Below, piece after piece: positions 38,042-42,213 of a DNA stretch of 64,000 nucleotides. A model generated the notes under the pieces. The model was not told where the DNA came from. It searched no databases and saw only the letters and a list, made by a program, of their open reading frames with translations. The stretch is from Ruminococcaceae bacterium UBA1767. GTDB lineage: Bacteria > Bacillota > Clostridia > Oscillospirales > Acutalibacteraceae. The stretch spans positions 2,240 through 66,239 of the forward strand of contig DCGX01000057.1 of assembly GCA_002315505.1 (NCBI GenBank). Reading direction: 5' to 3'. The position numbers were made by a program, and so were the translations under genes. Each line of letters starts with the position of its first letter. Within the stretch, counting starts at the first letter, position 1.

Positions 38042-38941
38042 TTATCTGTCAATATAATCGCAAGCGGCAAGAGCTGCAATTGCGCCGTCTGCGGCGGCAG
38101 TAGCAACCTGTCTGATTTTCTTGCTTCTGCAATCACCTGCAACGAAAATACCTTCTGTTACAGTTGTACAGGTTTCATCGCTGTCTGCGTAGCCGTAATC
38201 ATTTAATTTCAGAACATCTGCAAAAGGTTCATTCTGCGGAACAAGTCCGATAGCAAGGAAAATTCCGTCAAGCTCAATCGTTTTCTCTTCGCCGTCGGTA
38301 TTGACAACTTTTACTCCTTCAATTCCGTTATTACCGAGATACTCCTTAACAACAGTTGAAAGAATAATTTCAACATTTTCCTTTGCTTCAAGCTGTTCTG
38401 CGAGCTTCTTTTCACCCGTAAGGCAGTCAAGATTCTGAATTACATAAACCTTGCTTGCGAGGTCGGAGAGCAAAAGTGCCTCCTGCAAAGCGGAATTACC
38501 GCCGCCGACAACTCCGACAACCTTATCCTTATAGAAAGCACCGTCACATACGGCACAGAACGAAATGCCTTCGCCGAGATATTTTTCTTCGTTGTCAAGA
38601 CCGAGCATACGATGCTTTGCGCCTGTTGCAATAATAACAGCCTTTGCCTCGAATTCACCATCATCTGTAACTACGGTTTTAACTTCGCCGTTCTTTATTT
38701 CAAGAACCTCCATACTCTCAACGTCTGCACCCTGCTCGAGTACCTGTTCAACGAGCTTTTCTGCAAATTCATTGCCTGTAAGCGAAATAAAACCGGGGAT
38801 ATTCTCAACCTTTGGCGAATATGTTATCTGTCCGCCGAATGTTGCTTTTTCTATAACAAGCACGGATTTGTTTGCTCTGCGGGCATATAATGCGGCTGTA
38901 AGTCCTGCAGGGCCTCCGCCGATAATAATTATATCATACAT
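38042..38941 (-). CDS. trxB: thioredoxin-disulfide reductase
   Basis: GGGPAG FAD motif, CAVCDG redox centre, GGGNSA NADPH motif; 299 aa. Confidence 0.92.
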   Translation of the reverse strand: MYDIIIIGGGPAGLTAALYARRANKSVLVIEKATFGGQITYSPKVENIPGFISLTGNEFAEKLVEQVLEQGADVESMEVLEIKNGEVKTVVTDDGEFEAKAVIIATGAKHRMLGLDNEEKYLGEGISFCAVCDGAFYKDKVVGVVGGGNSALQEALLLSDLASKVYVIQNLDCLTGEKKLAEQLEAKENVEIILSTVVKEYLGNNGIEGVKVVNTDGEEKTIELDGIFLAIGLVPQNEPFADVLKLNDYGYADSDETCTTVTEGIFVAGDCRSKKIRQVATAAADGAIAALAACDYIDR

Positions 38942-38996
38942 AGCTATTCCTCATTAAGGCAATACCGCACATTAGATTTGTGCGGTATTGTACTGA

Positions 38997-41363
38997 TTAT
39001 TTATTTAAATATTTTTTAATATCCGAAACTCCTGCGAATTTCTCATACTCGCCGTTCTTAACAACTACGAGCGTCGGAGCCTGTCTGATTCCGAACTGCT
39101 CTGCAACCTCAGGATTTTCGTTTGCAAGAATCTTTGTGTATGCAACTCCTGCCTTATCAAGTGTTGCACAGGCAATCTTACAGTTAGGACAGGTAGCTGT
39201 TGTGAAGATATAAAGTCCGTCATCAACATTCGGTGTGTCGTTCTTTGACTCAGTGATTATAGCTTCCTGTGCTACACCGTTTCTTGTAAGATGTGAATTT
39301 GCGATGTCATAAACCTTACGGTCTGCATACTCCTGGCTCTTACCATCGTTCCAGTTCTGTACAGGACGATAGTAGCCTGTTATACGGCTGTAAACCTCTG
39401 CAGGCTTACCGCAATGCGGACAAGTGAACTGCTCACCTACAAGATATCCGTGGTCACGACAAACTGAGTATGTTGGTGACATTGTGTAATACGGGAGCTT
39501 GTAATTTTCGGCAATCTTTCTTACGAGGGTTGCCGCAGCCTTCCAGTCAGGCAGCTTCTCACCGAGGAATGCATGGAATACAGTACCTGATGTGTAAAGT
39601 GTCTGAAGCTCGTCCTGAATGTCAAGAGCAGAGAAAATATCCTCTGTGTAGCCAACAGGAAGATGTGAGCTGTTTGTATAATAAGCTGTGCCGTTTTCAT
39701 TAGCACTGATAATATCAGGATAATATTTCTTGTCGTGCTTTGCAAGACGATATGATGTTGACTCGGCAGGTGTAGCCTCAAGGTTGTAAAGGTCGCCGTA
39801 CTCTACCTGGTAATCAGAAAGTCTTTCACGCATATGGTTAAGAACATTCTTTGAGAATTCCTGTGTCTTCTCATTCGTCATATCAGCCTTAATCCAGTTA
39901 GCATTAAGACCCGCCTCGTTCATACCAACAAGACCGATTGTTGAGAAATGGTTGTTGAATGTACCGAGGTATCTCTTTGTGTACGGATAAAGTCCGCTTT
40001 CAAGGAGCTTTGTGATAACTGTACGCTTAACCTTAAGTGAACGGGCTGAAATATCCATCATCTTATCAAGACGCTTATAGAAGTCAGCCTCATCGGTTGC
40101 AAGGTAAGCAATTCTCGGAATATTGATTGTAACAACACCTACAGAACCTGTTGACTCACCGCTTCCGAAGAAACCGCCCGACTTCTTACGAAGCTCACGA
40201 AGGTCAAGACGAAGACGACAGCACATTGAACGAACATCGCTCGGCTCCATATCACTGTTGATGTAGTTTGAGAAATACGGTGTACCATACTTTGCAGTCA
40301 TCTCAAAGAGCAAACGATTGTTCTCTGTGTCTGACCAGTCAAAGTCACGTGTAATCGAATATGTCGGAATAGGATACTGGAAGCCACGGCCGTTGGCATC
40401 GCCCTCAATCATGATTTCGATAAATGCCTTGTTGACCATATCCATTTCTTTCTTACAATCTTTATACTTGAAGTCAACTTCCTTACCACCGACAATACAG
40501 TTAAGTTCTGCAAGGTCATTAGGAACTGTCCAGTCAAGTGTAATATTTGTAAACGGTGACTGTGTACCCCAACGAGAAGGAGTGTTTACACCGTAAATGA
40601 AGGACTGAATACACTGCTTAACCTCTTTATAAGAAAGGTCATCAGCTTTAACGAACGGAGCAAGATAAGTATCAAATGAAGAGAAAGCCTGTGCGCCTGC
40701 CCACTCGTTCTGCATAATTCCGAGGAAATTAACCATCTGATTGCAAAGTGTTGACAAGTGAGTAGCAGGTGAAGAAGTAATCTTACCCGGGACACCGCCG
40801 AGACCCTCCTGAATGAGCTGCTTAAGTGACCAACCTGCGCAGTAGCCTGTAAGCATTGAAAGGTCATGAATATGAATGTCGCCCTTTCTGTGAGCTTCTG
40901 CAATCTCGTCATCATAGATTTCCGAGAGCCAGTAGTTAGCTGTGATAGCACCCGAGTTTGAGAGAATAAGTCCACCTACGGAATAAGTAACTGTGGAATT
41001 CTCCTTAACACGCCAGTCAGCAACATTAAGATAATTATTTACAATTTCAGTATAATCAAGGAATGTTGTGTTGATATTACGAATCTTTTCTCTCTGCTTA
41101 CGATAAAGGATGTATGCCTTTGCAACATCATCGTAGCCGGCCTTGATAAGAACAGACTCAACACTGTCCTGAATATTTTCAACGGTAACCTTACCGTCCT
41201 TGATTTTGCCTTCAAAATCAGCAGAAACCTTCAATGCGAGGAAATCTACTGTGTCCATATTGTACTGCTTGTTACAAGCATCGAATGCTTTTGTTATAGC
41301 ATCCCTGATTTTATGAATATTAAATTCTACAACCTTGCCGTCTCGTTTAATAACTTCGTACAT
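38997..41363 (-). CDS. nrdD: anaerobic (class III) ribonucleoside-triphosphate reductase with an N-terminal ATP-cone and a fused C-terminal CPNC thioredoxin-fold domain
   Basis: ATP-cone VIKRDGKVVEFNIHKI. C-terminal Zn site (CPHCG) and glycyl-radical motif SRITGYY at 39369-39386. A further 123 aa contain TCPNCK (39180-39191) in a Grx/NrdH-like fold. The ATG at 41363 follows AGGAGAAGG. Confidence 0.9.
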   Translation of the reverse strand: MYEVIKRDGKVVEFNIHKIRDAITKAFDACNKQYNMDTVDFLALKVSADFEGKIKDGKVTVENIQDSVESVLIKAGYDDVAKAYILYRKQREKIRNINTTFLDYTEIVNNYLNVADWRVKENSTVTYSVGGLILSNSGAITANYWLSEIYDDEIAEAHRKGDIHIHDLSMLTGYCAGWSLKQLIQEGLGGVPGKITSSPATHLSTLCNQMVNFLGIMQNEWAGAQAFSSFDTYLAPFVKADDLSYKEVKQCIQSFIYGVNTPSRWGTQSPFTNITLDWTVPNDLAELNCIVGGKEVDFKYKDCKKEMDMVNKAFIEIMIEGDANGRGFQYPIPTYSITRDFDWSDTENNRLLFEMTAKYGTPYFSNYINSDMEPSDVRSMCCRLRLDLRELRKKSGGFFGSGESTGSVGVVTINIPRIAYLATDEADFYKRLDKMMDISARSLKVKRTVITKLLESGLYPYTKRYLGTFNNHFSTIGLVGMNEAGLNANWIKADMTNEKTQEFSKNVLNHMRERLSDYQVEYGDLYNLEATPAESTSYRLAKHDKKYYPDIISANENGTAYYTNSSHLPVGYTEDIFSALDIQDELQTLYTSGTVFHAFLGEKLPDWKAAATLVRKIAENYKLPYYTMSPTYSVCRDHGYLVGEQFTCPHCGKPAEVYSRITGYYRPVQNWNDGKSQEYADRKVYDIANSHLTRNGVAQEAIITESKNDTPNVDDGLYIFTTATCPNCKIACATLDKAGVAYTKILANENPEVAEQFGIRQAPTLVVVKNGEYEKFAGVSDIKKYLNK

Positions 41364-41401
41364 TAAAATCCTTCTCCTCTTCAAAAATTAGCAACACATA
41401 G

Positions 41402-41430
41402 ATTATAGCAATCATTAATTCAAAAGTCAA
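41402..41430 (-). promoter_or_regulatory. sigma-A promoter of nrdD
   Basis: Minus strand: TTGACT (41430-41425), 17-nt spacer, TATAAT (41407-41402). Confidence 0.6.
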
Positions 41431-41463: not shown

Positions 41464-42156
41464 TTATATCCCCCTAAGTATTGTGTTAGGCACATATTTC
41501 AGCGCAGCCTCACGCATTTTCTCCATTTCTTCCTTATCAACACCGCAGATGTCAGTTCCGATAAGATTTCCGGAGTCGGTAAAATTCTGCAAGAAGTATC
41601 GTTTTGCACCGCTTATCCACTCTGCGGCAGACTCAATACTCTCAACAGTGTGGAAATTCTTAACAACTGTTGTGCGGAATTCGTAGTCAACATTATCAGC
41701 AAGAAGAAAATCAACCGTCTTTTCAACATCAGTTAAATCATAGGTTTCAAGCCCTATTGTCTTTGCGTACAATTCCTTTGAATTTTTAATATCAACCGCA
41801 ACATAGTCCACAAGTCCGTCACCGACAAGCCTTCTTAGCATATCGGGATTGCTTCCGTTTGTGTCGAGCTTAACTTCAAAGCCGAGCGCTTTTATTTTTT
41901 CAATAAATTGTGGGATATCATTGTTAATCAGCGGCTCACCACCGGTAATTGCGACTCCGTCAAGCAGACCTGTCCTCTTCTTTAAAAAGTCGATAATATA
42001 CTCTTCCGTATACGTTTCAGCCTCGTCAAGCTCTGTAACAAGCAATGCATTATGACAAAACGGGCAACGGAAATTGCATCCGCCCGTAAACACCGTACAG
42101 GCAACTCTGCCCGGGAAATCAAGTAATGTCATCTTTTGAAAGCCATGTAACAACAT
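41464..42156 (-). CDS. nrdG: anaerobic ribonucleoside-triphosphate reductase activating protein (radical SAM)
   Basis: CNFRCPFCHN radical-SAM cluster motif. The ATG at 42156 follows AGAGGTGA. The longer track ORF would run over the promoter. Confidence 0.9.
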   Translation of the reverse strand: MLLHGFQKMTLLDFPGRVACTVFTGGCNFRCPFCHNALLVTELDEAETYTEEYIIDFLKKRTGLLDGVAITGGEPLINNDIPQFIEKIKALGFEVKLDTNGSNPDMLRRLVGDGLVDYVAVDIKNSKELYAKTIGLETYDLTDVEKTVDFLLADNVDYEFRTTVVKNFHTVESIESAAEWISGAKRYFLQNFTDSGNLIGTDICGVDKEEMEKMREAALKYVPNTILRGI

Positions 42157-42184
42157 AATATCACCTCTTTGCGCATCGAAAAGT

Positions 42185-42213
42185 ATTGTATCACAATATA
42201 ATGTGTATTTCAA
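42185..42213 (-). promoter_or_regulatory. sigma-A promoter of nrdG
   Basis: Minus strand: TTGAAA (42213-42208), 17-nt spacer, TACAAT (42190-42185). Confidence 0.6.
42191..42206 (-). promoter_or_regulatory. NrdR box filling the -35/-10 spacer of the nrdG promoter
   Basis: Plus strand TCACAATATAATGTGT matches 14 of 16 positions of acaCwAtATaTwGtgt. Confidence 0.65.

Follow-up and report, generated by a model that had tools for sequence, protein, structure and literature searches.

Electron supply to class III ribonucleotide reductases (RNRs) that do not use formate is known from very few enzymes, and the locus described here raises the question of whether one candidate for such an enzyme, the oxygen-sensitive NrdD of Ruminococcaceae bacterium UBA1767, carries a reductant of its own. 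The locus lies in a window of 64,000 nucleotides (assembly GCA_002315505.1, contig DCGX01000057.1, positions 2,240 to 66,239), the window being the whole stretch of DNA analysed, to which all positions below refer. A first-pass annotation, made from the DNA alone, had read a CxxC thioredoxin-fold domain into the C-terminus of NrdD, and had proposed a self-contained path of electrons from NADPH through the product of the next gene, trxB, and the fused domain to NrdD. The reading favoured here, which we hold to be fairly likely, is that of a thiol-dependent (NrdD2-like) class III RNR that carries its own reductant, a redoxin domain that would be re-reduced by TrxB. Residue numbers are those of the 795-residue form of NrdD starting from the TTG at 41384, unless the 788-residue form is stated. 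The minus-strand frame 38997..41384 is open over these 795 codons, TTG being the first, and the database form begins at the ATG at 41363 (788 residues, identical to protein P0001).

A thioredoxin-fold domain at the C-terminus of NrdD

The NrdD frame runs on past the glycyl-radical motif RITGYY to residue 795, in agreement with the first-pass annotation, and the tail after the radical glycine measures 114-136 residues among fused relatives. The linker is shorter than the 51 residues first assigned to it. The stretch PVQNWNDGKSQEYADRKVYDI, its supposed first ~22 residues, aligns with the normal C-terminal end of Thermotoga maritima NrdD and is conserved among relatives after the radical motif; it thus belongs to the normal NrdD end, leaving a true, variable linker of ~28 residues (695-722).

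The segment that follows marginally passes the Pfam cut-offs for two families, Glutaredoxin at residues 726-774 (26.0 bits, cut-off 22.9) and Thioredoxin at residues 726-788 (24.5 bits, cut-off 23.5). Alignment A2, of 111 domain relatives at 38-66% identity to the window's copy, has just five invariant columns, three of which are the C, P and C positions of CPxC and two the Pro and Thr of the cis-proline loop. Of the 39 fused relatives, 37 have CPNC and 2 have CPKC as their CxxC motif, and the additional Cys739 shows no conservation. The QAPTL loop of the domain, which we take to resemble the IPTL of thioredoxin rather than the TVP of glutaredoxin, contains the cis-proline position. An AlphaFold2 (AF2) model of the domain built from the 111-relative alignment has a predicted local distance difference test (pLDDT) score of 94.5 and the order b1-a1-b2-a2-b3-b4-a3, a minimal thioredoxin fold, with CPNC at domain positions 17-20 before a helix at 18-30, and P55, the putative cis-proline, before a strand at 56-61. 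A Foldseek search of the PDB with this model returned thioredoxins first (TMq 0.70-0.77, probability 1.00), and its matches also include a glutaredoxin and chain E of a Bacillus subtilis RNR complex. The domain falls below the cut-offs of all the curated NCBIfam redoxin families compared (TrxA, NrdH, YruB, Grx3 and MJ0307), scoring 20-29 bits against 86-97 (best, TIGR01068, 29.3 against 96.8; NrdH, 23.7 against 85.75; YruB, 25.2 against 88.55), so that it belongs to none of these families. The C-terminal extension is a genuine, conserved thioredoxin-fold domain with intact redox motifs.

Distribution of the fusion

A protein search with residues 696-795 as the query (targets of 437-1392 residues, clustered at 90% identity) matched at least 1399 protein clusters. 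Among the 120 proteins listed from these matches, all have the NrdD Pfam domain and nearly all are 785-795 residues long; they come from Clostridia, Oscillospiraceae, Ruminococcaceae and Eubacteriales metagenome-assembled genomes (MAGs), and many have no precomputed redoxin domain. Databases label the fusion only 'ribonucleoside triphosphate reductase'.

Genome samples were searched with an 80-residue domain query. In the window's order, at E <= 1e-5, 197 of 401 genomes, from 87 of 177 genera, gave a match, spread over ~20 of 30 families; in the window's class, at E <= 1e-8, 69 of 401 genomes and 45 of 216 genera did so, and the domain identity there falls as low as 32%. Of the matches listed, almost all lie in an open frame of 780-870 residues or in a frame truncated at a contig end. 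With the single-domain query, species-representative genomes yielded at least 418 loci, with titles naming Oscillospiraceae, Acutalibacteraceae, Candidatus Fimenecus, Ruminococcus and Eubacteriales from human, ruminant, horse and other guts. The fused reading frame is real and old. About half of the genomes sampled from the order and about one sixth of those from the class have the fusion, which is thus a major architecture of gut and rumen microbiomes.

Free-standing forms of the redoxin, 75-84 residues long, also exist (P0129, P0149, P0229 and P0234). Most short matches in the representative library come from short contigs and are the C-terminal ends of fused NrdDs, which makes them unusable for counting free-standing forms. 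Other arrangements were also seen. In P0122 (255 residues, representative library), TrxB residues 1-178 run directly into a CPNC redoxin, as an assembly chimera or a rearranged nrdD::redoxin-trxB junction. P0128, P0156, P0165 and P0251 carry the CPNC redoxin domain repeatedly, in 2 to 8 copies; the two of P0128 have DACDGTRILGTAKAEPRP repeats between them, and the other three proteins are 1067-1402 residues long.

Active-site type of fused and unfused NrdDs

Full-length matches to NrdD models, all above their cut-offs (NF006126, 1144 against 548; TIGR02487, 520 against 326), an RxxGY motif after a Cys-rich zinc site, and a cognate, adjacent NrdG mark the protein as a class III RNR. A third active-site cysteine and a Glu define the thioredoxin-dependent NrdD2 subtype of Wei et al. 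(PMC4493059; PMC9669993), which includes the Neisseria bacilliformis enzyme NbNrdD, reduced by thioredoxin and thioredoxin reductase (PMC4493059; PMC9669993). The Glu, at the position of T. maritima E495, is proposed to be essential for formate-independent reduction, and enzymes that retain Met in the finger loop are said to have the parts for either formate or thioredoxin (PMC9669993).

Both sequence features of NrdD2 are present in the window. Y181-C182 aligns with T. maritima Y124-C125, the finger loop has the double-cysteine motif MCCR, which supplies the third active-site cysteine, and E536 in NLEATP lines up with E495 in the T. maritima NIEQVP. Put to the choice between a formate-type and a thiol-type site that the first-pass annotation had left open, the active site is, as judged by these residues, of the thiol-dependent (NrdD2-like) type. 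Because the finger-loop Met is kept, this NrdD may also be able to use formate.

The comparison was extended to NrdDs from 39 further fused loci (~20 families) and from genomes of the order that have no such domain. The window's NrdD and the 39 fused NrdDs (40/40) have YC, MCCR and NLEA(T/S)P, and all the readable unfused NrdDs (27/27, from 25 genomes) have the single-cysteine MGCR, counts that are not independent, since the genomes are related. The unfused enzymes have Leu, Ile or Tyr at the Glu position, where the column is readable, and a tail of just 20-39 residues after the radical glycine. Within the order, NrdD thus appears by sequence in two alternatives, a formate type without the redoxin and a thiol type with it, and no exception was found.

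Several NrdDs of the order are unusual in other respects. A paralogue in L084 (G234:C54), matching PF13597 at 465 bits, has the finger loop YQGNNIR without a radical cysteine; its frame ends before any glycyl-radical motif, and it may be a degenerate or repurposed copy. Formate-type (MGCR) genes are split in L079 (G273:C25), G157:C21, G299:C62, G108:C3, G173:C10, G089:C74 and G234. In L079 (1141-4065), a 765-residue frame stops ~25 residues past the CPRC zinc motif, and the glycyl-radical motif RRITGYLVG lies in a separate 56-residue frame ~455 nt downstream. An Rfam scan of the split loci matched no family; the split could represent an intron, a truly split gene or a spare glycyl-radical part.

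TrxB as the presumed reductase of the redoxin

The next gene on the same strand is trxB, as first annotated, starting 55 nt past the nrdD stop. In a tblastn comparison of 40 loci, the common order on one strand is nrdG-nrdD::redoxin-trxB. Of the 39 related fused loci (~20 families), 36 have nrdG upstream of nrdD and 29 have trxB immediately downstream of it, in each case in the orientation of nrdD, and in one more trxB lies 1.3 kb away. In a genome of the window's own family, G397 (L025), a separate gene for a 105-residue CPNC redoxin is translationally coupled to trxB, its stop overlapping the trxB start by 4 nt; this pair follows prmA, no NrdD lies within 6 kb, and the NrdD of the genome is of the MGCR type. 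The overlap with trxB, with no NrdD close by, points to the redoxin as a partner of TrxB. Redoxin and TrxB thus make up a unit of their own, which fits TrxB as the redoxin's reductase.

The donor to TrxB is a separate question. NADPH-dependent low-Mr thioredoxin reductases (NTRs) are recognised by GxGxxA together with VxxxHRRDxxR, and the arginines of HRRxxxR bind the NADPH 2'-phosphate (PMC5627308; PMC10880999). TrxB has the FAD-domain fold and CxxC of an NTR, and the combination of GxGxxA with HRRxxxR is not found in it: VYVIQNLDCLTGE stands where the NADPH-dependent enzymes have VxxxHRRDxxR, with QNLDCLT in place of HRRDxxR, and the upstream pyrophosphate motif is kept as GGGNSALQE. The same holds for most of the 32 TrxBs that adjoin a redoxin, 27 of which have Q(N/D)(L/M)...T and 5 HRR...R (the window's TrxB and 26 of 31 neighbours being without HRRxxxR). 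TrxB scores 323 bits against TIGR01292, slightly under the cut-off of 343, and 164 bits against PF07992. Its best PDB relatives are thioredoxin reductases throughout; the closest, 7jyp (254 bits), shares VQNL, and the structures 6gna and 6gnd of the ferredoxin-dependent FFTR score only 135-140 bits. A literature search found no paper describing 7jyp or its cofactor use. Because TrxB is without HRRxxxR, its electron donor is probably not NADPH, and the step from NADPH to TrxB that was first proposed is not supported. With the pyrophosphate motif kept and the phosphate-binding arginines gone, the sequence suggests NADH, or another donor, as more likely than NADPH. The loss of this motif in the partner TrxB would tie the synthesis of deoxyribonucleoside triphosphates (dNTPs) in these anaerobes to an electron donor that is probably not NADPH.

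Organization of the locus and the rest of the genome

The genes nrdG, nrdD and trxB all lie on the minus strand, and nrdG adjoins nrdD upstream (Table 1). No good promoter was found on inspection of the intergenic gap between nrdD and trxB, and the coding (minus) strand is not assigned an intrinsic terminator, because the T-rich tail of the intergenic hairpin is present on the plus strand only; co-transcription of nrdD and trxB is plausible from this layout. The hairpin occupies most of the 55-nt gap and is terminator-like only for the plus strand, on which no gene ends here.

Table 1. Coordinates of the nrdG-nrdD-trxB locus in the window, in order along the minus strand.
Feature	Residues	Position	Strand	Basis
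nrdG, radical-SAM activase of NrdD		41464..42213	-	TIGR02495 (NrdG2) 214 bits, cut-off 131; Pfam Radical_SAM match
Promoter-like site upstream of nrdD		41402..41430	-	TTGACT-17-TATAAT with TG extension, 11/12 matches; consensus match only
nrdD::redoxin fusion gene		38997..41363	-	NF006126 1144 bits; identical to P0001
ATP-cone	10-99	41088..41357	-	PF03477 87 bits
Class III RNR catalytic core	128-692	39309..41003	-	PF13597 637 bits, model positions 1-562 of 562
Beta-A cysteine (within YC)	C182	40839..40841	-	Aligns with T. maritima Y124-C125; invariant in 40 fused NrdDs
Finger-loop MCCR, double-cysteine motif	387-390	40215..40226	-	Aligns with T. maritima SCCR 328-331; invariant in fused set
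Active-site Glu	E536	39777..39779	-	Aligns with T. maritima E495; NLEA(T/S)P context in all fused NrdDs
Zinc-ribbon cysteines	C642, C655, C658	39411..39461	-	CRDHG...CPHC; C635, C648, C651 in 788-residue numbering; invariant in alignment A3
Glycyl-radical motif RITGYY	667-672	39369..39386	-	Invariant in alignments A1 and A3
Variable linker	695-722	39219..39302	-	Columns without consensus in A1 or A3
Thioredoxin-fold redoxin domain	723-795	39000..39218	-	Pfam cut-offs passed; AF2 model; Foldseek
CPNC redox motif (C732, C735)	732-735	39180..39191	-	C, P, C invariant in 111 domain relatives
QAPT, thioredoxin-fold cis-proline position (P770)	768-771	39072..39083	-	P55 and T56 of domain invariant in alignment A2
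Intergenic hairpin nrdD/trxB, 13-bp stem		38959..38991	.	T-rich tail on plus strand only
trxB, low-Mr thioredoxin-reductase homologue	299 residues	38042..38941	-	TIGR01292 323 bits
TrxB redox-active CAVC	129-132	38546..38557	-	Kept in 31/32 neighbouring TrxBs; one CAAC
TrxB VYVIQNLDCLTGE, replacing NADPH 2'-phosphate motif VxxxHRRDxxR		38411..38449	-	Motif comparison

The genome assembly is a MAG of 2.2 Mb in 84 contigs, 80% complete. In it, one NrdD was found and no class I or II RNR catalytic domain, which makes the fused NrdD the only source of dNTPs detected here. The TrxB adjoining nrdD is the only full-length TrxB match, and a canonical 105-residue WCGPC thioredoxin (TrxA) is encoded on another contig; the adjacent TrxB thus probably also serves as a housekeeping reductase, and the term 'self-contained' does not suit the path. 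Three PFL-like glycyl-radical enzymes are present (best 679 bits). No PF04262 GshA was found, a weak test, since the control search finds the family in only 1 of 14 genomes; a glutathione-dependent glutaredoxin reading of the domain is rated unlikely. A second weak Glutaredoxin-family match (23.4 bits) lies elsewhere in the genome, in a 116-residue frame (G000:C44:786-887).

Proposed electron path and its alternatives

In the favoured reading, NrdG would install the glycyl radical on NrdD, and in each turnover the electrons would come from C182 and one finger-loop cysteine (C388 or C389), which would be left joined in a disulfide, and E536 would donate the proton. The tethered CPNC domain would re-reduce this active-site disulfide by dithiol-disulfide exchange, and would in turn be re-reduced by the flavoenzyme encoded by trxB. 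The analysis shows the domain layout, fold and catalytic motifs, the retention of the fusion, its strict pairing with a thiol-type site and the synteny with trxB; from these we infer the flow of electrons from TrxB through the redoxin to NrdD, the cysteines involved and the identity of the donor. What stands of the path first proposed is thus a real redoxin, a thiol-type site and a conserved adjacency of trxB, and what is left unsupported is its NADPH step and its self-containment.

Several points weigh against this reading. The finger loop keeps its Met, and formate may be available to the cell, given the three PFL-like genes. Nine of the 39 fused loci have no trxB within ~5 kb, and with a single TrxB found in the genome and a canonical TrxA elsewhere, the adjacency of trxB could reflect a housekeeping rather than a dedicated system. 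The redoxin family extends beyond NrdD2, since G397 pairs a free redoxin and TrxB with an MGCR-type NrdD, and the strict counts of fused and unfused enzymes are weakened by the relatedness of the genomes already mentioned. Finally, the AF2 model of full-length NrdD (36-sequence alignment) is too poor to reveal any docking of the redoxin domain: its mean pLDDT is 62, most of the catalytic core lies below 50 and confidence is reached just in the ATP-cone and the redoxin domain, owing to the shallow alignment (74-84% identity); the low confidence in the linker is not specific.

A bolder form of the same reading, put forward tentatively, is that a large part of the gut and rumen Clostridia use an NADPH-independent tethered relay, in which the atypical TrxB, fed by NADH or a low-potential donor, would reduce the redoxin, and the redoxin would directly reduce the double-cysteine finger loop. 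If true, such a relay would explain disulfide reduction in a class III RNR that has no C-terminal shuttle cysteines, possibly by way of the flipped-out finger loop of the T. maritima crystal structures.

Among the alternatives, the one that survives best assigns the redoxin a role in maintenance or activation, and we regard it as unlikely. Formate would drive turnover through a Met/Cys thiosulfuranyl route, and the redoxin would only keep the thiols of NrdD reduced so that NrdG can install the radical, acting on the zinc-ribbon cysteines next to the glycyl-radical loop, or on the active-site cysteines after oxidative stress. The retained Met of MCCR and the PFL-like genes suit this role, as does the position of the tethered redoxin, ~50 residues away from both zinc ribbon and glycyl loop. 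Activation of E. coli NrdD reportedly needs the thioredoxin system, which is said to reduce its C-terminal cysteines (Padovani, Mulliez and Fontecave, 2001). However, a maintenance role leaves unexplained why the fusion occurs solely on enzymes with the double Cys and Glu, when the MGCR enzymes of sister genomes, always unfused, share the zinc ribbon; it also runs against E536, which occupies the position of the Glu proposed to be necessary for formate-independent reduction.

That the fusion is incidental, a general redoxin-trxB pair downstream of nrdD having become fused to it, with the domain serving as a cell-wide thioredoxin that has no role specific to NrdD, is improbable. The free redoxin-trxB pair of G397 with no neighbouring NrdD, the free-standing CPNC redoxins of 75-84 residues and the adjoining TrxB being the only one found in the genome all speak for it. 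However, the fusion persists across the class while the domain has drifted to 32-40% identity, which favours selection on the tether itself; for general duties the cell has a canonical TrxA, and the strict link to the NrdD2-type active site is left unexplained. A frameshift or misassembly that merged nrdD with a separate redoxin gene, for which nothing speaks beyond the genome being an 80%-complete MAG in 84 contigs, is rejected as having a negligible chance, because the same uninterrupted frame recurs in hundreds of independent assemblies from varied hosts and pipelines.

This natural covalent pair of enzyme and presumed reductant would be a clean system for studying how a redoxin reaches the buried active-site disulfide of NrdD. 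The fused pair would allow trapping of mixed disulfides, and a direct test of whether enzymes with both MCCR and Glu use thiol, formate or both.

Comparison with known systems

Trx-dependent class III RNRs and a functional glutaredoxin fused to a class I NrdB are already established. The fused NrdD shares with the NrdD2 enzymes (N. bacilliformis NrdD; T. maritima NrdD, 4coi and 4u3e) the beta-A Cys, the double-Cys finger loop and the Glu at the E495 position, and also the glycyl-radical domain, zinc ribbon and NrdG activase. The NrdD2 enzymes use a free TrxA, whereas here the redoxin is part of the same polypeptide. Unlike the T. maritima enzyme, from which it is distant in sequence (151 bits), the fused NrdD belongs to the NF006126 family, has MCCR rather than SCCR and carries an N-terminal ATP-cone.

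The fusion itself has its closest parallel in the Facklamia ignava Grx::ATP-cone::NrdB, a class I RNR in which the fused glutaredoxin was shown to act as RNR reductant (PMC6187632). Both join a small thioredoxin-fold domain with a CxxC motif to a subunit of an RNR. The F. ignava fusion is N-terminal, on the radical-generating subunit of an aerobic enzyme, and glutathione-dependent, whereas the present one lies at the C-terminus of a catalytic subunit and belongs to an anaerobic enzyme. Unlike the F. ignava glutaredoxin, the present domain has a Trx-like cis-Pro loop (APTL) and is paired with trxB, and GshA was not found by the weak test mentioned above. The same survey lists one grx::nrdD fusion, from Lachnospiraceae bacterium TWA4 (PMC6187632), a single case probably because the domain barely reaches the Pfam threshold. 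The literature searched contains no paper characterising a redoxin-NrdD fusion and no biochemical study of one, in agreement with the earlier impression of a fusion not studied biochemically; as an architecture, the fusion had been reported in this one listing.

A further parallel is the Methanosarcina barkeri NrdD3, for which Table 1 of PMC9176816 gives an NrdH-like redoxin and a ferredoxin:disulfide reductase. In both systems a class III RNR goes together with a small glutaredoxin-like redoxin encoded close by and a reductase that does not use NADPH, or, in the case of TrxB here, probably does not. The Glu present here is absent in NrdD3 (PMC4493059), whose redoxin is a protein of its own and depends on an Fe-S reductase; here the redoxin is fused and the reductase would be a flavin-containing TrxB homologue.

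The redoxin domain resembles the short archaeal and clostridial thioredoxins (MJ0307, TIGR00411; YruB, TIGR02196; NrdH, TIGR02194) in its length (~75-85 residues), four strands, three helices, CPxC-type motif and cis-Pro, and differs from these families in its scores, as given above. TrxB, like the non-NADPH low-Mr thioredoxin reductases (DvTRi, FFTR and the NADH-preferring TmTR and DvTR3), has lost HRRxxxR (PMC5627308); unlike TRi, in which the GGGxxA pyrophosphate motif has degenerated, it keeps this motif, and it is far closer to 7jyp than to the FFTR structures. To what is known of these systems, the present analysis adds the missing NADPH motif, the free redoxin-trxB unit, the quantitative distribution of the fusion and its exception-free pairing with one type of active site.

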